DNA from: a plasmid
Strand: one strand, 5' to 3'
Length of the DNA: 38,144 nt
Sequence record: NZ_CP072379.1
Below, in pieces: positions 1 to 38,144 of the stretch (positions are counted from its first letter, which is position 1; the number at the start of each line of letters is the position of its first letter). Both the position numbers and the translations under genes were made by a program. The notes below the pieces were generated by a model. The model ran no database searches and was not told where the DNA came from. It worked only from the letters and a program-made list of their open reading frames with translations.

Positions 1-3000
1 GCTGAATTTGCTGATACTCCTGCTCCTAAATGTGTTGTTTCAGCATATCTACTGAAATTGCTTCCTCCTGAACCAAACTTGTCTTCTCCTGAAAGAGATA
101 AGGCATTCAGGTTTACTTTGTTCACATCTAAAGCCAGATGATCTGCACTTAACATTCCGCCTGTCGATTCATAGCTATTTGCTTTAACAAATACAGTTCC
201 ATTTGAAGAAATTGTTCCCAAAGAGTTCACTTCTTCATGCTTAGTTCTGTCAAATTCGCCATTGTAATAGCCAACACTTCTCTTCGTTGTATCGTTTATC
301 ACTTTTCCATTGTCAGAAATTAAGACAACTGCTTCATTACCACTGATTTTTCCACCGATATTTTCGATATTTTCTACTGACTGAATGAAAGTTTTGTCTC
401 CAGTAATTTCTGAAAGTAAATTTGTTGCAGTTTCATTTTTTATAGTATTTGCCTGAACATAAGTAACTCCCCCATTACCAATTTTCATTCCATTATTTAC
501 AAAATTATCGGTTTTGATGTATGTCCCATTAACTCCACTAATTTTATTACGACCATCTGCAGTTATTGTATTCAAAGTATTTTTGCTTAAGTAAATTTTT
601 GGAACTAATACTTCAACACCATTAACATTTTGAGTAACATACCATATTAAATCTTTAGACAGTCCACTAATCTGCTCAGGTGTCAGCTCTTTTCCAACCT
701 GCAATCCCAATCTAGAACTTTCCATTCCTGCATTATCCATCAACGATTTTATCAAATCTTCATTAGATTTACCATTGATAAATGCTGTCCCTAATTGCTC
801 TGTCAATGCCCTAGTTATCAACTGATTTTCATAATATGCATCTCCAAGTCTTCTAACTCTGTTCCAGCTAGGCGTGTATCCTAATCTTGATAAAAAGTAA
901 TCACTTCCATAATACTTATTCAAGTCAACATATTTACTTCTAGTTTCCAGCAAATATTTTGAACTAGGATTCATATTCTGAGTAAACATTGCACTAGTCA
1001 ATAAAGGATTTACAGAAATTGTCCCAGTATTCAAAATTGCCTGAACAGATGACATATTATTCACAATTTGAATATTTGGATTCGCCAAATTTACATTAAC
1101 TGCACCATTTGTTGAAGAAATTCCTTTACCAATCGCATTTGTAAATAAGCTTCCAGCAACTCCATGTGTTACACTTCCATTATTGATTTTTCCATTTGCT
1201 TCAGTAATTGGAGATGTAATAACAGGAGCATTTATATTTACTACTGAACCTTCTATAATGCTTGGCTGTCCAGCTTCATATCCTATTTTTCCTTTTAGTA
1301 AATTTCCCTTATCATCAGTTAAAGTTCTTTTAAAAAATGTATCAGCAGACACTTTATTATGCCCTCTATGAAAAGCTACATAAACTTCTTCTCTTCCATT
1401 AGAAAGTTGAACTGCATTTCCTAATGTTACAGAATTTTCAAGACTTGAAGCATTGATATTTACAATACCTCCACCTGAAATTATACTATCCTTATTTTTT
1501 ACATTTCCTGAATTTATTGTAATATTTCCATTAGCTAACACTTTACCATATTCTGTTGTAGCATTACTTTTCATTTTTTCTTCTAATGCTATTTTGGGAA
1601 ACTTTACTGTTCCAGTTTTCATATCATTATGATTTCCTTCTTCCCCTATTTTCTCTTCGATCAAATCATAATGATTTGTAAATAAATATGATTTATATCC
1701 ATTTATTAAATTTGAATTTTTTAATTTCTCTAACCAATTACGCTGTGGAATTAAAACATCATTACTATGTTTACCCTTCGACATCTGCTTTCCTATTTTA
1801 TATATCCATCCATTATTTACTTCATTTTCGCTTAATTTTATTCCATCCCAAGTCTCATAATATTTCTCATACTTATCAAGGTTGCTGACTCTCCCAACAT
1901 TCTGAAAATCACTAGAAGTAATCAAAATATCTCCTGTAGCCTGAATCGTCCCAACATTGTTCACGATCTTTCCAGCATTCAGATCCATGTTTCCACCTAG
2001 AATTTCTCCCTCATCATTTAATATATCATTTCCTTTGATAATCAATGTCTGTCCACCGTAAATCGTCTTATCCTTGTTGTTTTGAACCTTGTTTTGAGCA
2101 TTAATTTCAAGATGTTTCTCAAATGCAATCAAATCATTGTTTGTAATGTCATTTCCACTAATTTTTCCATTATCTCCAGTAATTATTGCATTGTTCACAA
2201 TATTTCCTTGCCCATTAATAATAACTGTATCTGAAGAAATATCACGGTTATTTGTAAAGTCATTTGATGTAATCTGAATAAGCCCTGTACCCGTTGTATT
2301 TCCATTGTTTGTGATGTTTCTTCCTGAGATAATTAACCTTTGCTGTCCGTGAAGATTTCCATCTAAATTAATATCCTGCGTTGTTGTCAACACAGTGTTA
2401 TTAGCTTTAATTGTCCCAGTATTATCAAACTTCTGAGCATTCTGCATTGATATATCGCCTGATAGTATCTCTCCTGTATTCGTAATCTTTGAATTATCAA
2501 ATAAAATTTTGTTGTTAGATGCGACTTTACCATTATTCATAACATCTGCATTCGCTGAATTCACATCATTCATAGCCAAAATTTCCCCTGTATTTGTAAG
2601 TTTTTGAGTATCAAGATCTACATCTCTACTTGAATGAATCTGTCCACTATTTGTAGATTCATTTACTTTAGCCTTAACGTTGCCAGCACTAATTTTACCA
2701 GCATTTCTTAACTCAAATCCTTTAACTTCAACATTTTTCCCCTCAATATTTCCACCATTATGATTCACAAGTGAATCTGTAGCTGAAATATCAGAGTTAG
2801 TAGCAACTGTTCCTGAATTTTCCAATCTCTTAGATGAAATTTTGTCTCCTGACGCAATTTTTCCTGAATTTTTTACATTTTTAGCTGTTAATCTACCATT
2901 TGTAAGTATTTTACCGCCATTATCCACATCGTCTGCAGAAATTTTTCCTGACGCCAAGACTTTTCCAGTATTCGTTACATTTTTTGATTTAAAGTCTTTG

Positions 3001-4595
3001 GTATTAATTTTCCCTGAATTTTTCACATTATCAGTACTGATATTTTCCGCTTGAACTTCACCTGAATTTTCTGCATTTTTTCCTGACAAGTTACCATTTG
3101 CTAAGACTTTCCCGCTGTTTTTAATATCTTTTGAAACAGCTATATCGCTTCCTGTCTCTACATTTCCACTGTTTTCAAGATTTCCATTGACTGTAATTTT
3201 TCCATTTGACCTAACATCTCCTGAAGTTTCCAAATCATCTGTTGAAATTTTACCTACAGCTGCAATTTCTTTTGCATTTTTCACTTTTTTTGCTTTAAAA
3301 TTTCCTGCAGCAATGATTTTACCATTATTTGAAACATTATCTACCTGAATATTTTTCCCCGAAACTTTTCCAGATGATACAATATTTTTAGCTGTAAAAT
3401 CATCATTTGTCGATATCTCTCCAGTATTTTTTACATCTTTTGTGACCGTAACCTTATTAACTGAAGCCACTGACCCGCTATTATTTAATTTCCCTGAAAT
3501 CTGTGTCGTTTTTGAAACTTGAATTTTTCCTGAATTCGTTAAATCTTTTGTTTTCAAATTTCCATTTGCAAATATTTCAGAATCATTTTCAACATCTGCA
3601 TTCAAGCTAATATTACCATTAGCCTGTGTTTGACCTGCTAATTTTACAGTATTTGCTGTAATATTAATATCCTTGTCAGAACTGGCTATCTCTGATTGCG
3701 AATAATCAGAACCTTTAATTTCAATACCATTTCCCTTAATTTTAGCAACATTAATTTTACCGTCAGCTGTAATTTCCAGCTTTTCATCTTTCGAATAAAT
3801 TAATGCCCTTGAATTTACTCCAGCACCTTTATCTGTACTAATTATTCTAACCTGTCCAGCATACATTGACCCAAGATTACTTGCGTCTATAGCCACTGAA
3901 TTTATCCCACCTTTTGAAGTCACTGCTCCACTATTATCTACAAAATTTTCTCCCAAAGTTACGTCAACCTTGTTTCCGACAAGATTTCCCTGCATTTCCA
4001 AAGCTTTTGCGATAACATTAACATAGTCAGTATTTGTCGCATCAAATCCATTCGCTCCAATTACGACTCTCCCTTTTTCCACATCAATTCCTACAACATC
4101 TCCATCTTTCAGCTTAACTCTTCCTGTTGTCGGTATAAAATTCCTTATATTTATTGTTCCTGCCCCATTTAAGTAAATTCCATTTTCATTAGACAGAATC
4201 ACATTTACCTTATCACGGCTCAATGCTTCAATATATCCCTCAATTTGTGAACGGTTAGCACCGTTTACCTGCAGCAAGATTAAATTTGCAGCCTGATTTG
4301 GACCTAAATTCGGATTTGCATTAATTAGTCCAGCAAGATGGCTTCGTCCCAAATTATCAGCGTTATTAAGCACTTGACCTTCATGTCCAACATTATATTC
4401 CAAAAATTCATTAATACTTACACCCCGATTATTCGGAGTAGAAATATTAATAATTGGCGTTCCATTTGCTGAAGTGTCCAGTTTCGTATTGTGCTGAGAA
4501 TTAGGGTCCAGCACTAAATTTGCCGCGAAAATATTCATATTCATTGATACCAAAAGCAAAAATGCTACTGATTTTTTTAAAATTTTATTCTTCAA
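1..4595 (-). CDS. Two-partner-secretion exoprotein (TpsA; filamentous hemagglutinin/CdiA-like), N-terminal portion. The ORF runs off the left edge of the window and probably continues at 34946..38144 on a circular molecule.
   Basis: The minus-strand frame is open from a TTG start at 4595, preceded by GAAGGAGG, down to position 1. The N-terminus, MKNKILKKSVAFLLLVSMNMNIFAANL, looks like an extended signal peptide. It is followed by a TPS domain (NPNLGPNQAANLILLQVNGANRSQIEGYIE...) and then FHA-type repeats. The gene lies immediately downstream of tpsB on the same strand. Confidence 0.85.
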   Translation of the reverse strand, partial: MKNKILKKSVAFLLLVSMNMNIFAANLVLDPNSQHNTKLDTSANGTPIINISTPNNRGVSINEFLEYNVGHEGQVLNNADNLGRSHLAGLINANPNLGPNQAANLILLQVNGANRSQIEGYIEALSRDKVNVILSNENGIYLNGAGTINIRNFIPTTGRVKLKDGDVVGIDVEKGRVVIGANGFDATNTDYVNVIAKALEMQGNLVGNKVDVTLGENFVDNSGAVTSKGGINSVAIDASNLGSMYAGQVRIISTDKGAGVNSRALIYSKDEKLEITADGKINVAKIKGNGIEIKGSDYSQSEIASSDKDINITANTVKLAGQTQANGNISLNADVENDSEIFANGNLKTKDLTNSGKIQVSKTTQISGKLNNSGSVASVNKVTVTKDVKNTGEISTNDDFTAKNIVSSGKVSGKNIQVDNVSNNGKIIAAGNFKAKKVKNAKEIAAVGKISTDDLETSGDVRSNGKITVNGNLENSGNVETGSDIAVSKDIKNSGKVLANGNLSGKNAENSGEVQAENISTDNVKNSGKINTKDFKSKNVTNTGKVLASGKISADDVDNGGKILTNGRLTAKNVKNSGKIASGDKISSKRLENSGTVATNSDISATDSLVNHNGGNIEGKNVEVKGFELRNAGKISAGNVKAKVNESTNSGQIHSSRDVDLDTQKLTNTGEILAMNDVNSANADVMNNGKVASNNKILFDNSKITNTGEILSGDISMQNAQKFDNTGTIKANNTVLTTTQDINLDGNLHGQQRLIISGRNITNNGNTTGTGLIQITSNDFTNNRDISSDTVIINGQGNIVNNAIITGDNGKISGNDITNNDLIAFEKHLEINAQNKVQNNKDKTIYGGQTLIIKGNDILNDEGEILGGNMDLNAGKIVNNVGTIQATGDILITSSDFQNVGRVSNLDKYEKYYETWDGIKLSENEVNNGWIYKIGKQMSKGKHSNDVLIPQRNWLEKLKNSNLINGYKSYLFTNHYDLIEEKIGEEGNHNDMKTGTVKFPKIALEEKMKSNATTEYGKVLANGNITINSGNVKNKDSIISGGGIVNINASSLENSVTLGNAVQLSNGREEVYVAFHRGHNKVSADTFFKRTLTDDKGNLLKGKIGYEAGQPSIIEGSVVNINAPVITSPITEANGKINNGSVTHGVAGSLFTNAIGKGISSTNGAVNVNLANPNIQIVNNMSSVQAILNTGTISVNPLLTSAMFTQNMNPSSKYLLETRSKYVDLNKYYGSDYFLSRLGYTPSWNRVRRLGDAYYENQLITRALTEQLGTAFINGKSNEDLIKSLMDNAGMESSRLGLQVGKELTPEQISGLSKDLIWYVTQNVNGVEVLVPKIYLSKNTLNTITADGRNKISGVNGTYIKTDNFVNNGMKIGNGGVTYVQANTIKNETATNLLSEITGDKTFIQSVENIENIGGKISGNEAVVLISDNGKVINDTTKRSVGYYNGEFDRTKHEEVNSLGTISSNGTVFVKANSYESTGGMLSADHLALDVNKVNLNALSLSGEDKFGSGGSNFSRYAETTHLGAGVSANS

Positions 4596-4647: not shown

Positions 4648-6444
4648 TCAAAAAGAAATTTTCAATGCCGTATTAAAATATATTTCCTGCTTTTTCGGAT
4701 TCAAATATTCTGAGTGTGAAATTGGCTTTGCATACCCAAAATTAAAATCTAGATACTTTGTATCCAATCTAATCCCTGCCGTAGCACCTGTCATATATCC
4801 TTTCCCGTATTTTGAACTATCATTGTTGACTCTCACATATCCATAACTGTACCCAAAATATGGTGATACAATTGCTATTTTTTTTATAGGAATATTGTAA
4901 GATATTTCATTTCCAATCTCTATTGCTTTATCCCCTGAAATTGTACTCCTATGATAACCTCCTACACTTCCAACACCTCCTATAGACTGTCTCTCGCTCC
5001 CATAGAGCGTGTCATTTGAAAAAGTTGAATAAATGTTCGCCCTATATACAAAATGCTCTGTCACGGGCTTGTAATAGCTCATATCAAGCGTATACTTATC
5101 AAATTGTGCCTTAGGAGTTGTGCTAAGCTTCCCATCATCTATCTCTGCTCCAAAAATTTTAAGCCCTTTCTCATAACCTAAATTTACTCCAAAAAGTCCC
5201 TTAAACAGAGATGTCGTATAACTAATGTTAGCTGTACCTATTGCCAGCTTTCTATTAGATAAAACTGCTCCTTCCAAGTAATTATCATTATGCTTTCTTT
5301 TAATTCCAATTCCAGCTGTCAACTTACTTTTCTGATTTCTAAAGAGTATTTTATCTAAATTCATAGAAAGCGTATGACTGGAAGTATACAGGTCATAAAC
5401 TGTATTAGATGCATAAAAACTGCTTTCCTGAATACTTTTACTCGAACCTAGTTTCATTGTATAGTCTCTGAATTTCATCGTGTATCCGAAATTAAACATA
5501 TCCATACGCCTTTTATACGGCAGCCAGTCTCCCTTTGATGGATCATACCCAATTGGTCCAATTGGCAATATTTCTCCAGGTTTTAGTTGTTCTGCTCTTT
5601 TCTTCCAGCTTCTGTCAGGCATTTTCTTAGGAACGGTCAAATATGTAAAATATACATTGTCTCCTATCCCTAAAGGACTATCGATACTAAGGCTGACACC
5701 TTTTCTCCAAATACCATCCTGCTTGTTGTCTCCGTAATTATTTGAAATTAAGCTAACAGAATATTTATTTTTAAGAATATTTTTCACTTGAATTTTTGAA
5801 GTATTTTCTTTCTTTCCAGGTAATACCTCCATTGTCATGTTATTTGCCTGTATCGAATTAAAATTTTCTGTAGCCGTGTCTAAATCTCTTATATTGAAGA
5901 TTTCCCCCTTATTTTTCTTAAACATGAAAAACTCCTTTAATTTATCAAGACCATTTTCCGAATTAATTTTAATCTCCTCTATTTTTCCTGGAATAACTGC
6001 CAAATTTAATTTCCCTGTTGTCAGGTCATTATTAGACATAACTGTTACCGTCGAAGTTGTATATCCTTTTACAATTAATTTATTTGTGAATTCTGTTAAA
6101 AGATTTGTGATGTCCGCTGAACTTAATTCTAGATCCTTGTACTTGTCAATGATTCTTGATTTGTCTTTCTTTGACAGTAATCTATTATTGTCTCTTAAAT
6201 TAATTTCAGTAATTAAAAATTTTTTAGAATTGTCAGAAGAAACTATTCCTTTAGCTTCAACATTTGAGCCTTTATCAAATTGCGTATTTTCAAACTCTGA
6301 TTGTTTTTGCTTTTGTTCTATTCTAAGCCTTTCCTGTTCCAACTGTCTTTCTTGGTTATCTAAAATCTTTCTAGCTTCATTTTCAGGAGCTGACATACTT
6401 ATAACAGAAATTAATACTGCTAAAATTACAATAATTTTGTTCAT
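4648..6444 (-). CDS. TpsB-family outer-membrane transporter (ShlB/FhaC/CdiB-like) with a signal peptide and POTRA region
   Basis: A 598-aa ORF with an ATG at 6444 preceded by GGAGGTG. The GTG at 6453 given in the ORF track lies inside the Shine-Dalgarno sequence. A signal peptide MNKIIVILAVLISVISMSAP is followed by POTRA-like and beta-barrel sequence ending in a terminal F, as in ShlB/FhaC-family activators. It sits directly upstream of tpsA. Confidence 0.85.
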   Translation of the reverse strand: MNKIIVILAVLISVISMSAPENEARKILDNQERQLEQERLRIEQKQKQSEFENTQFDKGSNVEAKGIVSSDNSKKFLITEINLRDNNRLLSKKDKSRIIDKYKDLELSSADITNLLTEFTNKLIVKGYTTSTVTVMSNNDLTTGKLNLAVIPGKIEEIKINSENGLDKLKEFFMFKKNKGEIFNIRDLDTATENFNSIQANNMTMEVLPGKKENTSKIQVKNILKNKYSVSLISNNYGDNKQDGIWRKGVSLSIDSPLGIGDNVYFTYLTVPKKMPDRSWKKRAEQLKPGEILPIGPIGYDPSKGDWLPYKRRMDMFNFGYTMKFRDYTMKLGSSKSIQESSFYASNTVYDLYTSSHTLSMNLDKILFRNQKSKLTAGIGIKRKHNDNYLEGAVLSNRKLAIGTANISYTTSLFKGLFGVNLGYEKGLKIFGAEIDDGKLSTTPKAQFDKYTLDMSYYKPVTEHFVYRANIYSTFSNDTLYGSERQSIGGVGSVGGYHRSTISGDKAIEIGNEISYNIPIKKIAIVSPYFGYSYGYVRVNNDSSKYGKGYMTGATAGIRLDTKYLDFNFGYAKPISHSEYLNPKKQEIYFNTALKISF

Positions 6445-7161: not shown

Positions 7162-7306
7162 AAAATAACAAAAAGTCTGTATTAAATAACAAAAAGTCTG
7201 TATTAAATAACAAAAAGTCTGTTATTAAATAACAAAAAGTCTGTTATTAAATAACAAAAAGTCTGTTATTAAATAACAAAAAGTCTGTATTAAATAACAA
7301 AAAATA
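7162..7306. repeat. Iteron array for rep1: six tandem copies plus one partial copy of a 21-22 bp unit, taaataacaaaaagtctgt(t)at
   Basis: Direct tandem repeats are seen 60-200 bp upstream of the rep1 start. An AT-rich palindromic stretch precedes them at 7061-7110 (aaaagttttaaaatttttt...tttaaaacttttttaaag) and ttaaaaacaag is repeated three times at 6940-7000. This is the classic layout of an iteron-type theta origin. Confidence 0.8.
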
Positions 7307-7371: not shown

Positions 7372-8412
7372 ATGAATAAAATTGTAAAATTTCATAATGA
7401 TTTGAACAGTATTAAATTTTCTTCTTTTAGAGCTGTTGAATACGATCTTTTTTTTGCTATTTTATATAAATTAAAAGATAAACAGGAAGAAGAGATTATA
7501 TTGACTTTTGAAGAATTAAAAAAACTTTCTGAATATAAAAAAACTCAAAATAAATATTTTATAGATTCACTAATAGAAATAAATCAAAATTTATTATCTA
7601 TCAAATTAAACTTCAAAAATTATACTGAAGGACTTTATATTGGAGCTACTTTTTTTACTTATTACGAAATAAATGAACAAGAAAAAACTTTATCAATTTC
7701 AGTAAATCGGAAATTGACTTATTTAATTAACGATTTAACAAAAAATTTTACTCAATTAGAATTAAAGAAAATGTCTCAAATGAGTAGTAAATATTCAAAA
7801 ATAATTTTTCGATTTTTGAAACAGTATGATAATACTAAAAATAATACTAATTTTTGGGAAATTGAAATAAATGAGTTTAAAGAGTTGTTAAATATTCCTT
7901 CTTCGTATTTAATGGCAAATATTGATACTAGAATTTTAAAACCTGCATTATCAGAGTTATCTCCTCTTTTTTATAATTTAAAACTTATTAAAAAGAAAAG
8001 GGGGCGAAAGATAGATCGTTTAAGATTTGAATGGAATACAGAAACTGTTGAAATGAAAAAAAAGAAGGAAAATGAACCAAAAAAATCAGAAGTTGAATCA
8101 AAAAGAAAATACAAAATCATAGAAAATACTCCTAAAGTAGAAGAAAAAGAGAAAACTTTAAGTGAACAAATTAAAGAAGAACTTGAGATGGAACAAGAAG
8201 CTTTAAATAGAAGTACCACTTTATTAGGAGCATATATTGCTGGATTAAAAGATGTAACAAATAACTCAATTATAATCGATTCTAAAAGACGTATAAACTT
8301 GAGAAAAGAGAAAATTGAAAAATTGGAACAATTTTCTAATTTGGCTGATGACGAAATTGATGAGAGTTTGGAAAAAGTGATACAGAAAGTATTGGAGATG
8401 GAGATTAAGTAG
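7372..8412 (+). CDS. rep: Plasmid replication initiator, Rep_3 (RepB/RepA iteron-binding) family
   Basis: A 346-aa ORF with an AAGGATG Shine-Dalgarno sequence. The N-terminus, FHNDLNSIKFSSFRAVEYDLFFAILYKLKD, matches my recollection of the Rep_3 N-terminal region. The C-terminus is Lys/Glu-rich. The gene is preceded by an iteron array. Confidence 0.8.
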   Translation: MNKIVKFHNDLNSIKFSSFRAVEYDLFFAILYKLKDKQEEEIILTFEELKKLSEYKKTQNKYFIDSLIEINQNLLSIKLNFKNYTEGLYIGATFFTYYEINEQEKTLSISVNRKLTYLINDLTKNFTQLELKKMSQMSSKYSKIIFRFLKQYDNTKNNTNFWEIEINEFKELLNIPSSYLMANIDTRILKPALSELSPLFYNLKLIKKKRGRKIDRLRFEWNTETVEMKKKKENEPKKSEVESKRKYKIIENTPKVEEKEKTLSEQIKEELEMEQEALNRSTTLLGAYIAGLKDVTNNSIIIDSKRRINLRKEKIEKLEQFSNLADDEIDESLEKVIQKVLEMEIK

Positions 8413-8435: not shown

Positions 8436-8513
8436 TTTAAAAACAGGATGATAAAACTACCATCCTGTACCATATATTATATTTTGAGTTTACACAAAAT
8501 TCTGGACACTCTC
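8436..8513 (+). repeat. Junction element: hairpin (caggatg-N10-catcctg, 8444-8467) followed by a 28-bp unit gagtttacacaaaattctggacactctc (8486-8513)
   Basis: Seen directly in the sequence. The hairpin also recurs at 28387-28410. The 28-bp unit recurs at 9128-9155, 9156-9183 and 34114-34141. Its 13-bp core tttacacaaaatt recurs at 13369-13381 (reverse complement), 13412-13424, 15692-15704 and 25099-25111. Confidence 0.7.
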
Positions 8514-8536: not shown

Positions 8537-8800
8537 TTATTTATCTCCATAATGAGAACCACATTGAACAATTTTTATAATCCCATCTTCAATTTTATAA
8601 ACAATCCTGTTCCCAGCATCTATTCTTCTGCTCCAATATCCACTAAAATCATATTTCAGAGCTTCCGGTTTGCCAATTCCTGTATAGCCATTTCTATCAA
8701 TATCTTTTATAAGTTCCAAGATTCTTTTAAAAACTTTTTTATCATTTTTTGCCCAGTATTGAAATTCTTCCCATGCTTCATCAGTCCACGATTTAATCAT
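8537..8800 (-). CDS. yoeB: Type II toxin of the YoeB/Txe family
   Basis: The sequence MIKSWTDEAWEEFQYWAKNDKKVFKRILELIKDIDRNGYTGIGKPEALKYDFSGYWSRRIDAGNRIVYKIEDGIIKIVQCGSHY aligns almost along its whole length with my recollection of E. coli YoeB. It overlaps the upstream antitoxin ORF by 8 bp. The ORF-track start at 8845 is probably spurious. Confidence 0.8.
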   Translation of the reverse strand: MIKSWTDEAWEEFQYWAKNDKKVFKRILELIKDIDRNGYTGIGKPEALKYDFSGYWSRRIDAGNRIVYKIEDGIIKIVQCGSHYGDK

Positions 8801-10756: not shown

Positions 10757-10784
10757 TTGAATCATCATCGGCACCCGAATATGT

Positions 10785-28433: not shown

Positions 28434-28544
28434 ATAAATCTCCAAATACTATATAGTATTTAGAGGGTTACGCAAAAATTTTTACACACTCTAGTTACTT
28501 TTTAAATCAGTTTTACTGTATCTGAAAATTAAGAACTTTAGTTA

Positions 28545-29150: not shown

Positions 29151-29158
29151 TTATCTTT

Positions 29159-30091
29159 TTACAAAAATATCATTATAATATACCCTGAAATTATAGAAAA
29201 AATCCAAAGCATAATACCAAACAAAAGATTTTTCCCCATCATTTTTTTAATAGTCTGTACATTTAATGAAGTTCCAATCATATAAAGTGCAAGGGATAAT
29301 AGCATTTTCCCTATTTGAGTAAGTAAACTGTAAATTGCTGGTAAATTTATTATTGTTGCAACAATTGAAGCTAAAATGAAAAATAATATAAAAATCGGAA
29401 ATTTAATCTTCTTATTTTCAGATTTATTTAAAATGCTAAGAATGATAACTATTGGAATAATCCAAAGAGTTCTGGTAAGTTTCATAATTGTAGCTATTCT
29501 CAAAGCTTCTGTGCTGTGAAAAGCTGCAGCTGATACTACCGAACTTGTATCATGAATGCTTAGTGCAGTCCATATTCCAGTTTGTTCAGCATTTAACTTA
29601 AAATAATTTATAAAAAATGCAAAAAGAAATAATGCAACTGTATTTAAAATAAATACTATCCCCGTAGACAAGGCAATATCTTCATCAGAAGCTTCAATTA
29701 CTGGAGAAGTTGCCGCAATAGCACTTCCACCACAAATTGCAGTCCCAAACACAATTAATTGTGATAACTTCTTTTCCATTTTAAAAATTTTTGCAAAAAA
29801 TAACCCGATACTTATAACTACAATCAAACTAATTGCCGTCTGAAAAATCCCTTTACTTCCAACAGCAACAACCTTACTTATGCTAAGTCCAAATCCAAAA
29901 AATACGACAGCTGAATTTAGTGTAAGTTTTTCTATTTTCCCTAAATTTTTTGGAACTAGAATTAAACTGAAACTCGCCATAATAATTCCCATAAGAAGAG
30001 ATATTCCCGAAGCAAAAGCGTGAACACTTTTAATTAATGGAAGTATTAACGCAATTACACATCCCACATAAAATATTATTTTTTTATTCAT
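29159..30091 (-). CDS. YeiH/UPF0324-family integral membrane protein (putative sulfate-exporter family)
   Basis: A polytopic membrane ORF with the GTAICGGSAIAATSPVI motif characteristic of the YeiH family. The ATG at 30091 (MNKKIIF) follows AGGAGTG. Confidence 0.65.
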   Translation of the reverse strand: MNKKIIFYVGCVIALILPLIKSVHAFASGISLLMGIIMASFSLILVPKNLGKIEKLTLNSAVVFFGFGLSISKVVAVGSKGIFQTAISLIVVISIGLFFAKIFKMEKKLSQLIVFGTAICGGSAIAATSPVIEASDEDIALSTGIVFILNTVALFLFAFFINYFKLNAEQTGIWTALSIHDTSSVVSAAAFHSTEALRIATIMKLTRTLWIIPIVIILSILNKSENKKIKFPIFILFFILASIVATIINLPAIYSLLTQIGKMLLSLALYMIGTSLNVQTIKKMMGKNLLFGIMLWIFSIISGYIIMIFL

Positions 30092-30142
30092 ATTATCACT
30101 CCTAACTTTCAAAATATTTTTATTGTTTTTTCCTATTTAAAA

Positions 30143-30178
30143 ATTGCAGAAATAAGACTCTTTTCTTTAAGTAGAGTC
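30143..30178 (+). terminator. Hairpin and T-run (agactc-N13-gagtct ttttttt). Diverged copies of the same motif lie at 28343-28365 and 10597-10628.
   Basis: A 6-bp stem is followed by seven T residues. The flanking sequence attgcagaaataagactcttttctttaagtagag is shared by the three loci. Confidence 0.4.
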
Positions 30179-30237
30179 TTTTTTTCTAACTAATTAAAGT
30201 AAAATATGTTGTAATTTTCATACTTTTACTTAAACCT

Positions 30238-30699
30238 TTATTTATAAGCAACTTTCACTTCTTTCCCATGAAATGTAATCCCAATCTTCAAGATATTTTT
30301 TATCCCTCTTGCCTTTAGTTTAGTATCATATTTCTTTTCATCAATCTGTTTCAAAACTTTCTGTGCTATCTTTTCCATTTCATTTTTTGTCTTTGATATT
30401 TTAAATTCCATAAGATAAGCTTTTTCATTGCTTTTTATTGGAATCATCACAAGGTCGTATCTTCCATATCCACTTTCATCATTTGAAATAATCTCATATT
30501 TCCCCATTAAAAATCCTACAAGCCCTATCATAAACACTTGGTATATTTTTTCCATTTCCTTGTCCAAGTCAAAAAAACTTAACATATTTATCATTATTTC
30601 TCCTAATGTTTTCTCAAATTTCTTAATATCTCCATTTTCAAGTGCTTTTATCAAAATATTTGTTTTTACTTCTGTTCCAAAAAACTTGTTTAAGAACAT
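30238..30699 (-). pseudogene. C-terminal 153-aa fragment of a second AAA-ATPase/PD-(D/E)XK gene, truncated by IS insertion at about 30712
   Basis: DNA at 30187-30710 is over 90% identical to 13530-14055, including the 3' flank. The homology ends abruptly at the IS terminal repeat ggagtgtccccaaaaatttagacta. Confidence 0.8.
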
Positions 30700-30712
30700 A
30701 TTACCAAAATAT

Positions 30713-31055
30713 GGAGTGTCCCCAAAAATTTAGACTATTTTTAAGCAATTTTTTTGTTTCCTTTCTTTATGGCTTTCTTCGTATTCATTTGGACTTTTAA
30801 AATTTAATACTTTTCTTGATATATTATTGTATCTGCTGCAGTATCTTTTTACTGACCTTCTTAATTCTTCCAGACTTCTAAATCTTTTTCCTAAATAATA
30901 ATTACTGTCTAGCCTGTGGCTTCTTTCCACTTTCCCATTCTGCCACGGCGAATACGGTCTTGTTGTCATGTATTCTATCCAGCTTTAACTCAAATAGTGT
31001 CTTTTTGCCATTTTCCGCATTCGTAAACTCCCTGCCGTTATCACTTTGTATTTTT
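30713..31055 (-). mobile_element. IS remnant (rve-type DDE transposase, frameshifted and 5'-truncated) with the same 26-bp terminus as the remnant at 10183
   Basis: The ORF 30730..30969 encodes TRPYSPWQNGKVERSHRL...SPNEYEE. An upstream shifted frame reads SDNGREFTNAENGKKTLFELKLDRI, the third acidic-residue region of an rve integrase. The first roughly 80 bp match 10183-10265. Confidence 0.6.
30730..30969 (-). pseudogene. rve-type transposase C-terminal fragment (IS481/IS3-like)
   Basis: Contains the PYSPWQNGKVER motif. A frameshift relative to the upstream DNGREF segment breaks the gene. Confidence 0.55.
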
Positions 31056-31126
31056 TTATTTTAAAATTTATATGATCTTGATATAGGTAATATTCTTTTT
31101 CGAGCAATACTCCAAAATAATCAATA

Positions 31127-31399
31127 TTATTTTATGACTAACTCTAAAATTAGTTTTAATGAACTTACTATATTGATTAATACGGTTATTATTAATGTTA
31201 AATAAACCGTCATCCATTTATTTAATGATAATAAATTTTTTAATAACCAAAAAAATAATATCATTTGCGGAAGAATAAATAATATTATTTTAAATATACT
31301 TATTCTATAAATTAAATATGTTTTAATCATTGTAGAAAAAAGATCTACAAATATAAATATAGTTATGCTCATTGTGATATTTTTATCATCTTTTTTCAA
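31127..31399 (-). CDS. Small hypothetical membrane protein (about three transmembrane segments), doubtful
   Basis: A 90-aa ORF with a TTG start after AGGAAG and hydrophobic segments. It lies in AT-rich DNA downstream of the par operon. Confidence 0.25.
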   Translation of the reverse strand: MKKDDKNITMSITIFIFVDLFSTMIKTYLIYRISIFKIILFILPQMILFFWLLKNLLSLNKWMTVYLTLIITVLINIVSSLKLILELVIK

Positions 31400-31417
31400 A
31401 ATTACTTCCTTCTTTCT

Positions 31418-31645
31418 TTATTTCCAATTTTGAACTTCTTTTAAAAATATTGCTCTTCTAGGCGAAACATAATAATTAGAATTTTTACTTTTATCGTATT
31501 CTCTAAGTTTCCATAATCTAGTTTTCATTTCTGATAATTTTATGTTAGTATGATTTATCTTATTGTATTTTATCGGAATAATGTCAACGCTATCGGAATA
31601 TAATATACTAATTATCGGAATAATATTTTCTTTAAAAAATATCAA
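31418..31645 (-). CDS. Small hypothetical protein, doubtful
   Basis: A 75-aa ORF directly downstream of the parB-like gene. I do not recognise any motif. Confidence 0.2.
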   Translation of the reverse strand: MIFFKENIIPIISILYSDSVDIIPIKYNKINHTNIKLSEMKTRLWKLREYDKSKNSNYYVSPRRAIFLKEVQNWK

Positions 31646-31651
31646 AAAATT

Positions 31652-32284
31652 TTAAGTTAAAGATTTAATTTGCTCCTCAATATCTCTAATTTCTTCTCTT
31701 ATCTTTTTTATCAAGTGTTGCCTTTTTACTTTTTCTCTCGTTAAAAAAATTCTTCTTTCTTCCACATCTGATAACTTTACTGCTTCTTTCTGTTCTTCAA
31801 TTTCTTTTAATTTTAAACTTGGATTATCTGATTTTATTACTTCTATAATTTCAGTTTCTTGAAAGTTTTCTTTTTTATGCCCTGTTAAAGTTTTTACAGT
31901 TCTGTTAGGTAATGTTAAAACCTTCTCTGGTTCTTCAAGTCCCTTAGCTTGATATTCTAAATATAATGAATATTTTCTTATTGCTACATTTGCACTGTCT
32001 CTATCTATACCTAATTTTTCTATCCATTTTCCAAATGACCCATTTCCTTTATTTGAAAAAATTTGATTGGCTTCAAATATTGCTTTTGAATATTTAAAAA
32101 TATGTTCCATTGACTTTTCTTTATGGAATGTTATGTCGTTTTCATATTTTATAAGCTCTTCTTTTTCTGTTCCTGATATATCAAGTTCTTCATAATCTAT
32201 ATTATAAATACTTTCAATCTTTGCTACTACAGGAACTTTCTTGCTATTAATTTTACTAAGATCTAAATTAAATTTTTTGCTCAT
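31652..32284 (-). CDS. Putative partition adaptor or centromere-binding protein (ParB-like partner of ParA)
   Basis: A 210-aa charged protein whose start overlaps the parA stop (ATGA). Its position and size fit a plasmid ParB/ParG-like partner. I do not recognise a diagnostic motif. Confidence 0.45.
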   Translation of the reverse strand: MSKKFNLDLSKINSKKVPVVAKIESIYNIDYEELDISGTEKEELIKYENDITFHKEKSMEHIFKYSKAIFEANQIFSNKGNGSFGKWIEKLGIDRDSANVAIRKYSLYLEYQAKGLEEPEKVLTLPNRTVKTLTGHKKENFQETEIIEVIKSDNPSLKLKEIEEQKEAVKLSDVEERRIFLTREKVKRQHLIKKIREEIRDIEEQIKSLT

Positions 32285-33021
32285 TTTATCCCCTCTTTTT
32301 TTATCATTTCTTTTGCTAAGCTACTATAATCTTTTGCTCCATTTGCATTTTTTGAATAATCAAATATTGATTGATGTGTAACAATACATTCCGATAAAGC
32401 CACATTTTTTCTTATTATACTTTTTAGTAAATAATCTTTATATTCTTCTTTCAACTGTTCCTGTATTTGTTCCGACAATGCTGTTTTTTCTTTTCTAATT
32501 AATATAATTCCCGATATATCTTTTCCCAATCCTTTTGTAAAATTAATCGTAGCATTAAGTCCTAAAAGCTCATTTATTCCAGGTAAAATTACAGGATAAA
32601 CACTTGAAGTGTAAATTGCTGAAGTCGTATACGCATTAAATGCTGGAGCGGTATCAAATATTATAACATCATAATTTTCTGATAGATTTTCTAAAAAATT
32701 ATTCAACAGTTGATAATAATATGGTCCTTGATTTCTTAATTCTTCCATATCTTTTTCTGCTTCAGTCCCAGCACTTATTAAATATAAATTTTTATTTAAT
32801 TTTTCGGGTTGAAAGTCATTTGTTCTTTCAAGTAAATAATCTCCTAACGAAAAATTTAATTCATTAACATTTATTCCAAAATTTGTAGAAAGATTTAACT
32901 GCGGATCAGTATCGATTGCCAAAGTTTTTAATCCCTGCTTTGAAAAATAATGTGCCAAATTAAAAACCGTTGTTGTTTTACCACAACCACCTTTATTATT
33001 AACTATTGCTATTTTTTTCAT
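32281..33021 (-). CDS. parA: ParA/Soj-family partition ATPase
   Basis: MKKIAIVNNKGGCGKTTTVFNLAHYF is a deviant Walker A motif (KGGxGKT). The ATG at 33021 follows AGGGAGG. It is about 247 aa long. Confidence 0.85.
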   Translation of the reverse strand: MKKIAIVNNKGGCGKTTTVFNLAHYFSKQGLKTLAIDTDPQLNLSTNFGINVNELNFSLGDYLLERTNDFQPEKLNKNLYLISAGTEAEKDMEELRNQGPYYYQLLNNFLENLSENYDVIIFDTAPAFNAYTTSAIYTSSVYPVILPGINELLGLNATINFTKGLGKDISGIILIRKEKTALSEQIQEQLKEEYKDYLLKSIIRKNVALSECIVTHQSIFDYSKNANGAKDYSSLAKEMIKKEGIK

Positions 33022-33095
33022 AACATCCTCCCTAAAAATAAATTTTTTTATCACTTTTAGTATAACATTATTTATAAAAAAATCAATTTTTTTAA

Positions 33096-33117
33096 TTTGT
33101 CAGTCATGACTGACAAA
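33096..33117. promoter_or_regulatory. Perfect 22-bp palindrome tttgtcagtca|tgactgacaaa, a candidate par operator or centromere-like site
   Basis: Arms of 11 bp with no spacer lie 75 bp upstream of the parA start in non-coding DNA. Confidence 0.45.
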
Positions 33118-33186
33118 CTGATTTTTTATTTCTGAATGTAAAAAAAATCAAAGAAAATCATAAATTATCTTCAGTTTTTCCCCTAC

Positions 33187-33828
33187 TTATTTTAAAATAC
33201 TATCTAAATTTACAAGTTTGCTATTGATATCTGAAAAACTCAAGTTAGCATAAATTAAAGTATTGTTTATATTTTTATGACCAAGAACTTTCTTTAATTC
33301 TGCTAATGATAATCCAGCGTTTAGTAAATGTACTGCTCGACTGTGACGGAATACATGCGTATGTGCAAACTTCTTATCAATTCCTAACTTTTCAAATAAA
33401 CGTTTCATGTATCTATTTGTGTGATTTTCATCAGCTCTTCCTTTTCTAGAATTTCGTGCAATATAGTCTTTACTTGTTAATCCCAAATGTAGCTGCTGTT
33501 CTAGTAATAGAGCATAAAGTTCTGATGACATAACAATTTCCTTGTAATCCTTAAATTTTTGTTTTGAGTTATTGATTTTTGCCACTGTTAGATTTTTCCC
33601 CCTGTAATTAATTTTCTGTATATCACTATACTTTAAGTTAACTACTTCATTAATTCTTGCTCCTAATTCATATAGTAATGAAAATACTACTTTGTAATTA
33701 AGACTTGCATTTTCAATAATTTTTTTTATATCTGATTCACTAAGATATTTAACCTTTTCTTCTTTTTCATCTTTTTCATCATCTATAAGAATTATATCAT
33801 TTCTATTTTGTATAAAAATATCCTTCAT
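33187..33828 (-). CDS. Short tyrosine recombinase (catalytic domain only, 213 aa)
   Basis: GARINEVVNLKYSDI carries the catalytic Arg I. HTHVFRHSRAVHLLNAGLSLAELKKVLGHKNINNTLIYANL carries the H-x-x-R, His and Tyr nucleophile motifs. There is no N-terminal core-binding domain. Confidence 0.75.
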   Translation of the reverse strand: MKDIFIQNRNDIILIDDEKDEKEEKVKYLSESDIKKIIENASLNYKVVFSLLYELGARINEVVNLKYSDIQKINYRGKNLTVAKINNSKQKFKDYKEIVMSSELYALLLEQQLHLGLTSKDYIARNSRKGRADENHTNRYMKRLFEKLGIDKKFAHTHVFRHSRAVHLLNAGLSLAELKKVLGHKNINNTLIYANLSFSDINSKLVNLDSILK

Positions 33829-34096
33829 TTTAGTTCCTTTCTATAAGGAATTTTTTTTTTTATCTCATACCTTATTAATAATAATTATATAATATAAATT
33901 ATCAAAAAACAATATCAATTTTAGAACTTAAAACAAAAAGGTATGAAAATAATTCATTTCCACACCTTATTTTAAGCCTCAATTTATAAGCAACTTTCAC
34001 TTTTTCTGTTCAGATTATTAAATATATAACTATATTTTAACAGAAAAATTTTTTTTTAGCCATAACAAAAACCTCCAAATATTATATAGTTGTTTT

Positions 34097-34141
34097 ACCA
34101 TATATTATATTTTGAATTTACACAAAATTATGGACACTCTC
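34097..34141 (+). repeat. Junction element taccatatattatatttt followed by a 28-bp unit gaatttacacaaaattatggacactctc
   Basis: Matches 8468-8513. It lies about 290 bp upstream of the recombinase gene start, and both are on the same side of the module. Confidence 0.65.
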
Positions 34142-34223
34142 GCATCTCCTATTTTATGTCCGATATTTTGGATATATTTCAACAAAAAATCATCTGATTT
34201 TTTAGATAATTGTTTATAGAACT

Positions 34224-34403
34224 TATTTTTCTATCCTTTTTATTAGTTTACCTTTGATATAAATTTCTTCTGCTATTATTTTTCCATTCAAATTATATTC
34301 CTTACATAATCCACAAAGTCTTTCTTTTTCATCAAAAGAAACTTTAAATACAACTTTTTCATTTTTCCTTCTAATGCTATTTCTGAAAACTATATTGTTT
34401 CAT
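34224..34403 (-). pseudogene. Frameshifted small ribbon-helix-helix-like ORF
   Basis: MKQYSFQK is followed, after a frameshift, by NSIRRKNEKVVFKVSFDEKERLCGLCKEYNLNGKIIAEEIYIKGKLIKRIEK. The KVSFDEKERL...EYNL pattern resembles a ribbon-helix-helix DNA-binding protein of the CopG/MobC/antitoxin type. Confidence 0.25.
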
Positions 34404-34429
34404 TTCTACACTCTTTTATGAATACTCTC

Positions 34430-34945
34430 TCAATAATAGGGAATTTCAATATCATACCATCTTTTAAACCTAATTCCGATTTTATCTATAATAAATTCTG
34501 TTTCTTGATTTTTTAATTTTTTATTTTTAATAAATATCTTAAACTCAAAATAATTTCTATCGTATTCATAAAATCTTGTCCTAATTTTTTTATATATCTT
34601 TTTTTTATCTAAAATTTTTTTTAATTCTTCTTCTGATATTTCATATGTACAAAAACGCTTCTTCTCAAAGCATTGTAAGTTGTCTAAGTTTTTATTTACT
34701 AAAATTTCTCCTAATTTTTTATTATGATATATTATTTCAATTTTTTCCAATATATACTCCCTATTTAATTGTGGATCAAGATAAATGGAAAGATAATTAT
34801 CTTCCACTAACAAGTTATCAACCTTATTATTTTCATTTACTGCAAAACTTTTACTAATTCCAGCTAATTCATAATTTCCAAAATCTTTAAAATATATAAA
34901 AACTAATATAAAAATTGATATTAAAATTACAATTTTTTTTCTCAT
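34430..34945 (-). CDS. Small exported protein directly coupled to the tpsA 3' end, a candidate CdiI-like immunity protein
   Basis: A 171-aa ORF whose ATG immediately follows the tpsA TAA (TAAATG). The N-terminus MRKKIVILISIFILVFIYF is a signal peptide or membrane anchor. I do not recognise a family. Confidence 0.5.
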   Translation of the reverse strand: MRKKIVILISIFILVFIYFKDFGNYELAGISKSFAVNENNKVDNLLVEDNYLSIYLDPQLNREYILEKIEIIYHNKKLGEILVNKNLDNLQCFEKKRFCTYEISEEELKKILDKKKIYKKIRTRFYEYDRNYFEFKIFIKNKKLKNQETEFIIDKIGIRFKRWYDIEIPYY

Positions 34946-37900
34946 TTATCTTCCTTTATTATCTTTATGATATTCTTCTAATTCTTTAAATCCAACATGG
35001 GTTATTCCTTTTTTTCTAGCCCATTCAGAAATTTTTGAATAATTTAAACTTATAGTTTTGGCTAATTTATCATAATCCTCCCTTTCTTTTTTTGTTGATT
35101 TATCATTTATTCCCGTACCATGCTGTTTCCAATTACTTACATCTGTAAAATAATGTTTTCCTGCTTCCAATAACTCTACTGGATTAGAAAGATTTTCATA
35201 CGTATAGTAATCAAACGTTCCTATATTAATTGGATCCTTCACAACTTTTTTTAAGTCTGAAGTAAACACAATTTCTCTTCCATTTTCTTTATTGACAAAT
35301 TTTATATTTAGTCCCCCTGTTACTTTAATTTTTCCACCAATCATATTATGATATACTGCTTCTTTAGCTGAAACTCTTTCATACTTTTCAGGATGTTTTT
35401 TAAATTCTTCAATAGCTTCTTTATGATTCAACGCAACTAAATAATAATAATTAATTTTTTCTCTTTCTTTTTTATCACTGGAATAAGCACTCCAATTTAC
35501 TAAATATTTAGTAAAACGAGAATCAATTTCTTTTTTATATTCTTTATTGTTTAGATATTTTTCCCAACTTATAGAATCAGCTATTTTCTTTTCTTCATAT
35601 GCTTCTATAAAAGCACGTAGAACATTTGCTTTTTCTTTATCAGTATTAAACATTTTTTTACTATGATATTCAGAAGGAACTATTGTCTTATCCCCCACAT
35701 TCTCACCAAAATCAACATTGGAATAATCTTTCCCGTCTGATTGAATATTGATAGCTGGATTGTCATCCTTGTATTTTTCAGAAAAGTACTCATTTGAAGC
35801 CCTTCCTGTACTTTCAAGCCCTTTTTCATCTGTTCCTGTCTTTCTCTGTCTACCTTCAACTTTTCCTATTACGTGGCTTCCCTCTTCAACTATTGTTCCA
35901 ATAAGTCCAGCCTTTGTCATATTTTTCGAATCTTGTGCATTGATTATTATTGTTTTAATTCCATAATCATCTACATATGCTGTTCCTGTCTTTGGTTTTC
36001 CTTTTTCATCTAATAATTGTGGAGAATTTTTAGGATCTGAAAATATGATGTTTATGTCATATCCTAAATCCTTGTAGGCATCCTTAAAAATACCTGCTAT
36101 TTCAGTATCTACTGTCTTACCTATCAATCTTTCGCTCGTTATATTTTCAAGACTCTTGTCCAGTCTAACTTCTGAAAGCTGCCCAAAGAAGTTCCTGTTG
36201 TCATCCCCTCTGTCGTGAATTGACTCTTTTATTGCCCATTTTATGTCATTTATTTCCTCTTTGGCTTTCCCAATATCCTCTTTCAGTTTACCAGGATTAG
36301 TAAGATATTCTATAACCTGTGGCTCCACATTGATATTTGTTCTGCTATGAGTGTCCTTTATTATTTCATTGGCTTTACTTATGTCAGTATTTATAGGTGC
36401 TCCTTCATCTCTTCCTATTTCAGGACTTCCTATGACAGTATTTCTTGTGATTCCTTGCTTATCTCTGCTATCCTGATTGAATCCAACATTGGTAATTTTT
36501 GGGTTTCCTCCAAGTGAAACTCCTATTGAACCTCCTGTTGTTGTCATTGTATCATAATTTTGGATATCTTTTCCAGCATAAGTGTCAATTCTGAATGTAG
36601 AGTTCCCTTCCTTGCCTATTACAGCTCCAGTATTTTCAACTGTTCCAACATGAAGGTTGCTTCCTTCTCCAACAACGAATGTACTTTGATTGTCTACAAA
36701 TGCCCTGTTTCCATTTGTTCTACTTGCATTTATATTTACTGATGTTGGAATTCCTTGAGAACTCACTCCTACGCTCATTCCTTTACTGCTTCCAGTTGTT
36801 GTGCTTGTATTCTGTCTTGAAATAACTTCAACTTTTCCAATGTTTCCTGTTACTTTTCCACCTTCCTGATTAAATCCTGAAAGTGTCATTGTTCCAGTAT
36901 TATTGTGAACTTCATTTACATTTTGAAAATTACCATTTTGATAAATAGTTTCAGTTGTATTTTGATTACTTTTACTTGCTGAAATACTTCCACCGTTTCC
37001 AGTTGTCTGCATTTTGTGTCCATAACCTACTGTTGCACTTGCATTTATTCCTTTACTTGAACTTGATGAATTACTGCTGTTGTGCAATTCTACGGCTTCT
37101 TTTCTAATATTTTCAACATTGTTGTAAACGAATGTTCCGCCTTGTGCTTGTGTTCCTTGATATTCAATATTTTTTACATTGTTGTAAGTTATGCTTGAAT
37201 TTCCATCGGTAGGTTTCATTGTAGTTATAACAGCACTTTCTGTGTGCGAATCAGAGCTACTCTTAGATTTAGATATTCCAGCGTTTACTCCAATATTGGC
37301 ATAAAAATTATTGTTGGCTGAAGCATTTTTTACTCCTTGTTTTCCAACACTTCCATTAACATCATAGTTTGTCTGTCTTGTTCCTTGATTGTCTGCAAGT
37401 CCTTTAATTGTGCCAGTTACTGCATTTATTGCAGTCATTGCTCCACCAGCAGTATCGCCGTCCTTAACCTGTTTTACAGCATTCCCAGCCTGTTTTGCCC
37501 TGTCTAATATTGGGCTGTTTATTCCTGCTGAAATTCCAAAACTGCTGCTTTTACTTTCCGTATGCACATCTCTCGTATCAATTCTTGCTCCATATTTTAC
37601 ATCGCCATTATTGATTTGAATATTTCCGTATTCAAAGTTTGTAGCCGTAATTTCTGCACCTTTATTCAATACAGAACCATCTCCAATTTGTAAGTTAGAG
37701 CCAGCATTTATCGTACTCTTCTCATCGTATGAATTTTGTGATTTTCCATAACTTAATGAGGCTGTTCCGTGACTTATTCCACCTGAGAATCCTTTTTTCT
37801 TGTTCTCTTCAAAATAGCTATTGTGTAGCTGTTGTGCATCTGTTGTAAGTTTTCCACCAATATATGTATTATCTCCAAGCACAACGTTACTTCCAATTGA

Positions 37901-38144
37901 ATTTATATCGCCTAATATTACAGCGTTCTCTCCAAGCATTAGGTTACTTGCTGAATTTTCTTCAGTATGTGAATTTTTGTAGCTGCTTTTTGATGACATG
38001 AAACCTTTGCTTGTGCTTTTTGATTCATTTTCATAACTGTTTACTGCCGACTCTACTTTTATATTTCCTATTACTGTAAGTCCTGTCGTATCTTTTGCGA
38101 TAAATGATGAACCTTTTAAGTTCATATCTCCAACTGTTCCTGAA
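34946..38144 (-). CDS. C-terminal portion of the TpsA/CdiA-like exoprotein (FHA-2-like repeats plus a roughly 500-aa non-repetitive C-terminal region). The ORF continues past the right edge of the window.
   Basis: The frame is open from 38144 to the stop at 34946. Ser/Gly/Asn/Thr-rich beta-helix repeats (…ESKSSSFGISAGINSPILD…) give way after about residue 560 to a charged, non-repetitive domain (…VENTGAVIGKEGNSTF… to …HVGFKELEEYHKDNKGR). The frame at 38144 is continuous with the tpsA frame at position 1. Confidence 0.8.
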   Translation of the reverse strand, partial: SGTVGDMNLKGSSFIAKDTTGLTVIGNIKVESAVNSYENESKSTSKGFMSSKSSYKNSHTEENSASNLMLGENAVILGDINSIGSNVVLGDNTYIGGKLTTDAQQLHNSYFEENKKKGFSGGISHGTASLSYGKSQNSYDEKSTINAGSNLQIGDGSVLNKGAEITATNFEYGNIQINNGDVKYGARIDTRDVHTESKSSSFGISAGINSPILDRAKQAGNAVKQVKDGDTAGGAMTAINAVTGTIKGLADNQGTRQTNYDVNGSVGKQGVKNASANNNFYANIGVNAGISKSKSSSDSHTESAVITTMKPTDGNSSITYNNVKNIEYQGTQAQGGTFVYNNVENIRKEAVELHNSSNSSSSSKGINASATVGYGHKMQTTGNGGSISASKSNQNTTETIYQNGNFQNVNEVHNNTGTMTLSGFNQEGGKVTGNIGKVEVISRQNTSTTTGSSKGMSVGVSSQGIPTSVNINASRTNGNRAFVDNQSTFVVGEGSNLHVGTVENTGAVIGKEGNSTFRIDTYAGKDIQNYDTMTTTGGSIGVSLGGNPKITNVGFNQDSRDKQGITRNTVIGSPEIGRDEGAPINTDISKANEIIKDTHSRTNINVEPQVIEYLTNPGKLKEDIGKAKEEINDIKWAIKESIHDRGDDNRNFFGQLSEVRLDKSLENITSERLIGKTVDTEIAGIFKDAYKDLGYDINIIFSDPKNSPQLLDEKGKPKTGTAYVDDYGIKTIIINAQDSKNMTKAGLIGTIVEEGSHVIGKVEGRQRKTGTDEKGLESTGRASNEYFSEKYKDDNPAINIQSDGKDYSNVDFGENVGDKTIVPSEYHSKKMFNTDKEKANVLRAFIEAYEEKKIADSISWEKYLNNKEYKKEIDSRFTKYLVNWSAYSSDKKEREKINYYYLVALNHKEAIEEFKKHPEKYERVSAKEAVYHNMIGGKIKVTGGLNIKFVNKENGREIVFTSDLKKVVKDPINIGTFDYYTYENLSNPVELLEAGKHYFTDVSNWKQHGTGINDKSTKKEREDYDKLAKTISLNYSKISEWARKKGITHVGFKELEEYHKDNKGR

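Follow-up and report, generated by a model that had tools for sequence, protein, structure and literature searches.

The sequence record NZ_CP072379.1 presents a plasmid of 38,144 bp as one strand, and this whole stretch is called the window in what follows. Both of its ends lie within tpsA, a very large gene of the two-partner secretion (TPS) type, which raises the question of whether these are two halves of one gene and whether the window is an entire circle or a part of something larger. The evidence argues strongly for a whole molecule: the window is very probably a complete circular Leptotrichia-type plasmid of about 38.1 kb, written from an arbitrary base inside tpsA, and tpsA is shown as two open-ended halves because the linear record of the circle starts inside it. 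Such a closure had been proposed by a first-pass annotation of the sequence, and it is supported by a seamless join, by colinearity with homologues, by circular permutation and by the gene content.

Read on the minus strand from position 4595, the 5' part of tpsA contains 1,531 sense codons without any stop and leaves two bases spare (positions 2 and 1). Position 38144, at the opposite end, is the third base of a codon. The split codon, made up of the complements of positions 2, 1 and 38144, reads GCT and encodes alanine. The joined gene thus encodes 2,597 residues with no internal stop, its stop codon being found at 34946-34948, and the first-pass description of the two ends as in-frame halves of a single tpsA of about 2,597 codons, with an alanine codon at the join, is borne out by translation. 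The junction peptide is ...HLGAGVSANS-A-SGTVGDMNLKGSSF..., and the plus-strand sequence over the 38144|1 join is ...TTCCTGAA|GCTGAATT.... The gene starts at a TTG codon, with an in-frame stop 16 codons upstream, and the same start residue is seen in close homologues, for example P0002. The terminal-repeat check detected no overlap of 8 bp or more between the beginning and the end of the window, which shows that the two abut and are not duplicated. The N-terminal TPS domain (PF05860, residues 30-283, 164 bits for a cut-off of 33.5) and the C-terminal region lie on opposite halves of the window and come together only in the joined gene, where haemagglutinin repeats (PF13332) occupy residues 1821-1987.

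How much this agreement is worth depends on what is counted. The first-pass annotation gave the chance of frame agreement as 1 in 3, which is true of the frame alone but understates the evidence, since the two halves abut at the exact homologous base. By our estimate, two unrelated cuts in a 7.8-kb gene would abut at the same base about 1 time in 7,800. Several tpsA-like genes do occur in Leptotrichia genomes and plasmids, and the window might then be a linear piece of a larger replicon, with its ends falling by chance in two tpsA paralogues. The halves meet with neither overlap nor gap, which excludes this origin for practical purposes; the length of 38,144 bp is not rounded, which suits a whole record, and the genes add up to a complete plasmid, none of them being a chromosomal housekeeping gene. 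The probability left to a linear piece is negligible.

The joined protein could then be compared with its homologues. A search with it gave 1,764 relatives, and the best 120 of these, which were examined, are full-length proteins of the TpsA type, 2,350-3,130 residues long and up to 96% identical to it. In all 120, the top BLASTP high-scoring segment pair (HSP) crosses residues 1500-1565, and with them the junction. A multiple alignment of 17 of these homologues, reaching 45 residues to either side of the junction, is free of gaps, and the segment AGVSANSASGTVGDMNLKG is nearly constant, the alanine of the split codon included. The alignment against FhaB/CdiA-type proteins, which had been suggested as a check of closure, is thus colinear throughout the junction.

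Independent assemblies give the same picture at the DNA level. The adjacent positions 14595|14596 of a metagenome scaffold of 36,253 bp (L001) correspond to window positions 1|38144, and the 300-bp bins that flank the junction are 99% identical on either side, without a single indel. The two L001 HSPs differ in identity (98.6% versus 92.5%), and this gap was considered as a possible discontinuity at the junction; it was rejected, since the drop begins about 1.3 kb beyond the junction, near residue 1958, and identity collapses only beyond residue 2350 or so. A single HSP runs over the junction in 33 of the 40 related loci compared, reaching 15.8 kb at 98.9% identity in L011, and a 44-nt string spanning the junction is matched exactly in 23 metagenome-contig stretches. 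A flank beyond either end that differs from the other end had been named as grounds for abandoning closure; what follows position 1 in L001, scaffold_112, L011 and 30 other contigs is the sequence of position 38144. A scan of genome-collection contigs with a junction 42-mer gave no match, an uninformative result: the junction would be missing from any record that is cut here, and the genome chosen to represent a species may lack the plasmid.

The most direct evidence for a circle comes from a relative opened elsewhere. The metagenome scaffold PETT22-1_SAMN20225234_METAG-scaffold_112 in ENA (38,788 bp, scaffold_112 for short) was rebuilt from the overlapping loci L049, L042 and L053 with no conflicting base. 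It is effectively the same plasmid, with the same gene order, and a single HSP of 33,341 bp (98.75% identity) aligns it with the window, running from window position 32592 down to 1, over to 38144 and on to 37442. Its own tpsA allele is longer (3,046 residues) and different in its distal part. Scaffold_112 ends 7 bp past its tpsA stop and starts upstream of the recombinase gene, and the same interval is unbroken in the window, from 34946 down to 33828. Each of the two sequences therefore bridges the ends of the other, and they are related by circular permutation, as a circular map predicts. The order tpsB, intact tpsA, small open reading frame (ORF), the exact 213-residue recombinase of the window and ParA is found again in L060 and L062, and two loci from a single sample, L003 and L045, are 99.98% identical to window positions 24430-35796 and 9830-20317. 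The contigs compared jointly cover the whole circle: each of its 38,144 adjacencies, 38144 to 1 included, is contained in one or more independent HSPs of 1 kb or longer with 97% identity or higher.

Some points nonetheless weigh against closure. One rival reading is a false or collapsed circle, in which a larger molecule (such as a multimer, a cointegrate or a plasmid that has a pair of tpsA paralogues) was closed by the assembler through long, highly similar tpsA sequences. The tpsA family is mosaic and repeat-like, with several alleles per metagenome, and short-read assemblies often break within the gene, as do L003 and L017. Extra tpsA fragments or orphan C-terminal modules are present in some relatives (L008, L054-L059). 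The protein search gave no uninterrupted copy of the exact joined protein, and this exact tpsA allele is not whole in any independent assembly searched: the best full-length homologue is 88-89% identical, and those reaching 96% diverge at the C-terminal tip. For this molecule itself, closure is deduced from its sequence together with independent assemblies, and the cumulative guanine-cytosine skew, which is monotonic because nearly all genes lie on one strand (the minus strand), carries no information on origin, terminus or closure. A collapse remains very improbable, however. Identity to L001 and scaffold_112 is smooth over the junction, relatives that share the gene order and have one tpsA are of nearly the same size (38,788 and 38,080 bp), and the gene order on either side of tpsA agrees with independent contigs.

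The gene content also fits a complete plasmid. Two rep genes, partition and mobilisation genes and toxin-antitoxin pairs had been noticed from the letters alone, and all are confirmed by Pfam and NCBIfam matches. Both Rep_3 genes score above the Pfam cut-off, and each one has its own direct-repeat array immediately upstream, an arrangement that fits iteron origins and would make both genes candidate replication initiators. The circle would thus carry what a low-copy mobilisable plasmid needs, namely two Rep_3 genes with iterons, ParA, a MobV relaxase, an Xer-like recombinase and toxin-antitoxin genes, together with a cargo consisting of a lactose/tagatose-6-phosphate operon and a tpsB-tpsA-immunity locus that resembles contact-dependent growth inhibition (CDI) loci. 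In other words, its sequence predicts a self-sufficient, mobilisable backbone bearing two cargo modules, with putative Rep/iteron, Par and Mob activities.

One further contig complicates this simple plasmid picture, and adds to the points against it. L061 (k141_286455, 38,210 bp) puts the same recombinase-to-Mob backbone beside chromosomal genes: around its positions 9640-9700, MreC, RecO, EF-G and LacZ stand directly upstream of the window's exact recombinase, followed by ParA and, further on, Mob. The boundary between the chromosomal and the plasmid-type part holds a variant, GGGTGTGTCCAAAATTTTGTGTAAACC, of a 28-bp site which is described below and which adjoins the tyrosine recombinase gene in the window. 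L061 may be an integrated copy, and the element could then be an integrative mobilisable element that is chromosomal in some hosts and leaves the chromosome in circular form, instead of a plasmid with stable replication of its own. L061 may also be a metagenome chimera joined at a repeated site; the window has two Rep_3 genes with iterons as well as ParA, and closed relatives have been deposited as circular plasmids. An integrative life style is thus assigned a slight probability only, and it bears on the way of life of the element without contradicting the circular closure of the record. A complete circular plasmid remains by far the preferred reading, and the features of the window are listed accordingly in Table 1.

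Table 1. Coordinates of the features of the 38,144-bp window (position 1 is the first base of the record).
Feature	Position	Strand	Remarks
tpsA, 5' part	1-4595	-	Residues 1-1531 and two bases of codon 1532; signal-peptide-like N-terminus, TPS secretion domain
tpsB, outer-membrane transporter	4648-6444	-	598 residues from ATG; two POTRA domains and ShlB barrel
Iterons 1	7163-7303		22-bp unit, 6.5 copies, 98% matches; immediately upstream of Rep_3 gene 1
Rep_3 replication initiator 1	7372-8412	+	346 residues; PF01051, PF21205
dif-like site, copy 1	8486-8513	+	
YoeB toxin and RelB antitoxin cassette	8537-9047	-	
dif-like site, copies 2 and 3	9128-9183	+	Tandem (9128-9155, 9156-9183)
Rep_3 replication initiator 2	10959-11927	-	322 residues; profile match
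Iterons 2	12023-12157		21-22-bp units upstream of Rep_3 gene 2
Second RelB antitoxin, then YafQ-type toxin gene	12775-13280	+	RelB 12775-13044; toxin region 13034-13280, interrupted by a stop codon
Degenerate copies of the 28-bp site	15627-15654, 15689-15716		
Lactose phosphotransferase system / tagatose-6-phosphate operon	15735-24760	-	lacR (DeoR family), lacA, lacB, lacC, lacD, lacF (IIA), lacE (IICB), lacG, LacI-family regulator
Mob_Pre / MobV-type relaxase	25157-27142	-	661 residues
ParA partition ATPase	32281-33054	-	
Xer-like tyrosine recombinase	33187-33828	-	213 residues
dif-like site, copy 4	34114-34141	+	About 290 bp upstream of the recombinase gene
Putative cognate immunity protein	34430-34945	-	171-residue ORF directly after tpsA
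tpsA, 3' part	34946-38144	-	Third base of codon 1532 to residue 2597, and stop; haemagglutinin repeats, variable C-terminal tip
Variable C-terminal (putative toxin) domain of TpsA	34949-35689	-	Residues ~2351-2597 (~247 residues), right after the GENVGD motif (residue 2347)

Seen as a circle, the molecule belongs to a kind already known, being a further member of the Leptotrichia family of Rep_3 plasmids with TPS/CDI-like loci. A plasmid of Leptotrichia wadei JCM16777, pJCM16777-1 (NZ_AP019830.1, 32,202 bp, circular), indeed has the same core of ParA, TpsB (ShlB), a very large TpsA, a small ORF, Rep_3 and RelB, with RelB/RelE-type toxin-antitoxin genes and the same 28-bp site. It differs from the window in its tpsA allele and C-terminal tip, and its annotation contains neither the lac operon nor the Mob_Pre relaxase, both of which the window has. 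A megablast of both window halves against PLSDB 2024 gave partial matches only, all but one of them to Leptotrichia plasmids, and PLSDB 2024 holds no closely matching closed record. The host genus is taken from these best DNA matches. The closed Leptotrichia plasmids are 18-35 kb in size, and the DNA identity shared with them is patchy, at 74-94% over 1-11% of each half-window query. Complete genomes of Leptotrichia, from which these closed plasmids come, have been reported with the number of plasmids per strain (PMC6914741), and the passages on plasmids consulted in that report do not describe their gene content.

Closer relatives are found among metagenomes. Scaffolds 3468 and 5494 of VALL22-1_SAMEA10741767, likewise in ENA, are effectively the same plasmid (99.98% identity over 11.4 and 10.5 kb), but are fragments that stop inside tpsA. 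In the genome-collection contigs, the Mob protein has one match, on a rearranged contig from a metagenome-assembled genome of an uncultured Leptotrichia (L002, 98% identity). In a public assembly collection, 326 blocks list the exact TpsB and 605 the exact recombinase, which makes this plasmid family very common in sequenced metagenomes.

The join across the ends is itself ordinary, as is to be expected when a circular replicon is given a linear record, and current understanding is unchanged by these findings. Its practical consequence is that the record is best treated as a closed circle, in which a single tpsA annotation spans the record origin. Failing that, tpsA would be taken for a pseudogene or a pair of partial genes, and the one putative TpsA toxin that the plasmid encodes would be overlooked. 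The same molecule also joins a CDI-like competition system with lactose catabolism.

The tpsB-tpsA-immunity locus has the order and architecture of known systems. Plasmid-encoded CdiB/CdiA/CdiI proteins mediate contact-dependent growth inhibition in Escherichia coli EC93 (PMC8190604), and meningococcal TpsA systems exchange cassettes at the 3' end of the gene (PMC3848433). As in these systems, tpsB is followed by tpsA and a small ORF, and TpsA has an N-terminal TPS domain and a long haemagglutinin-repeat shaft, then a variable C-terminal domain, sharply bounded, whose variation is matched by that of the downstream ORF; orphan C-terminal/immunity pieces are likewise found in relatives. TpsB matches PF03865, PF08479 and PF17287, all over cut-off, and its gene ends 53 bp before the tpsA start. 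By analogy with two-partner secretion and CDI systems, TpsB would export TpsA, whose shaft would present the variable C-terminal toxin domain, and the ORF downstream of tpsA would protect the producer cell.

The boundary of the variable tip is very sharp. Identity to L001 falls from 81-100% in 300-bp bins to about 25-30% past residue 2350 or so, and among tpsA alleles otherwise 96% identical, it collapses directly after the GENVGD motif. The 171-residue ORF always stands 3' of this C-terminal domain (L003-L007), and the identity of the C-terminal 230 residues correlates with that of the downstream ORF (r = 0.98), none of the 91 locus pairs being discordant. For the C-terminal domain itself, only seven homologous clusters were found. 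The tip and this ORF would be a putative toxin/immunity pair. Against strict membership in the CdiA group, TpsA contains no VENN string and no PF04829 (PT-VENN) match, the break occurring after GENVGD instead. The host also differs, being of the phylum Fusobacteriota. Unlike their counterparts in the CDI and meningococcal systems, neither the C-terminal domain nor the putative immunity ORF could be placed in a known family or fold. Neither the tip nor the 171-residue ORF has a Pfam, NCBIfam or PDB-sequence match, and an AlphaFold model of the tip, of moderate quality (predicted local distance difference test score of 75), found no matching fold in the PDB (best E = 0.64).

In several relatives (L002, L008, L010, L054-L059), N-terminally truncated tpsA fragments and orphan C-terminal/immunity pieces are observed besides the full tpsBA genes or instead of them. 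The 171-residue ORF of the window is such an orphan in L002, and an ORF of equal length is present in L010. These pieces suggest that toxin tips are exchanged as cassettes.

The 28-bp site is the sole point here with some wider interest. It reads GAGTTTACACAAAATT(C/A/T)TGGACACTCTC, and GAGTTTACACAAAATTNTGGACACTCTC in the window, where four copies are found in one orientation for none expected. The copies at 8486 and 9128/9156 bracket the YoeB/RelB cassette, and homology to 10 of 16 related contigs breaks at the copy at 34114. When the related loci, with the closed L. wadei plasmid among them, are scanned along with the window, 62 copies come to light, and these border Rep_3, toxin-antitoxin, recombinase and orphan C-terminal/immunity modules. 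No fewer than 34 of the 276 informative homology breakpoints fall within 30 bp of a site, for 2.1 expected (about 16-fold), although the contigs are interrelated and the significance is thus overstated; other hot spots are seen at 27.9 and 30.1 kb.

This distribution recalls the dif modules of Acinetobacter Rep_3 plasmids and their pdif sites (PMC13141974, PMC6449649), where a 28-bp site likewise recurs at the edges of toxin-antitoxin and other accessory modules, at the places where related Rep_3 plasmids differ. In contrast, the sites of the window family are mostly direct and not alternating, with weak dyad symmetry, and one of them lies beside a gene for a short tyrosine recombinase that is the plasmid's own. 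A tentative proposal, rather doubtful when all its parts are taken jointly, is that Leptotrichia Rep_3 plasmids are built of cassettes bounded by the dif-like site GAGTTTACACA-AAATTN-TGGACACTCTC (toxin-antitoxin pairs, Rep_3 replicons, orphan tpsA C-terminal/immunity pairs and possibly the lac operon) and recombined by their own 213-residue recombinase, with the TpsA tip perhaps being a toxin of undescribed fold. If true, it would extend shuffling of the dif-module kind beyond Acinetobacter, to the exchange of contact-dependent toxin/immunity cassettes, with the ability to join plasmid and chromosome.

Several other traces of rearrangement can be recognized in the backbone. Antitoxin and toxin seem to have had different fates in the second toxin-antitoxin pair: the YafQ/RelE-type toxin gene is intact (81 residues) in the relatives L011, L042 and L045, and the window appears to have kept the antitoxin and lost the toxin. 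The 2-kb AT-rich stretch at 27143-29158 has no ORF of 60 residues or more. It includes, at 27912-28309, a 398-nt inverted copy, 95% complementary, of the Rep_3 gene part at 10916-11313. In L050 and L052, an intact third Rep_3 gene and a Fic gene lie between the PF03601 gene and Mob, and the stretch in the window thus seems to be a deletion remnant.

The window also encodes a PF03601 membrane protein and an AAA-ATPase/PD-(D/E)XK protein. The 3' end of the AAA-ATPase/PDDEXK_9 gene is duplicated as a direct repeat (13519-13818 and 30177-30476, 92% identity). Two fragments of integrase-core (rve) genes form another dispersed direct repeat (10197-10260 and 30738-30801). A 66-nt repeat family has copies at 10553-10618, 28309-28374 and 30111-30176, two of which adjoin the strongest hot spots of homology breakpoints, at 27.9 and 30.1 kb. 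All these repeats are probably insertion-sequence remnants and recombination scars. Downstream of parA, a 210-residue ORF (31652-32284) may be the partner of ParA, as judged by its position.

The second cargo module is the lactose/tagatose operon, which is complete. LacA, LacB, LacC, LacD, IIA, IICB and 6-phospho-beta-galactosidase are all encoded in one cluster, with a Pfam match for each gene, and LacG matches its NCBIfam equivalog TIGR01233 with 858 bits for a cut-off of 561. The same operon, with an identical LacC, is found on two long, apparently chromosomal contigs, L047 (116 kb) and L051 (182 kb), where its neighbours are type III CRISPR-Cas genes and a zinc ABC transporter. Being present both there and on the plasmid, the operon therefore moves between chromosome and plasmid.

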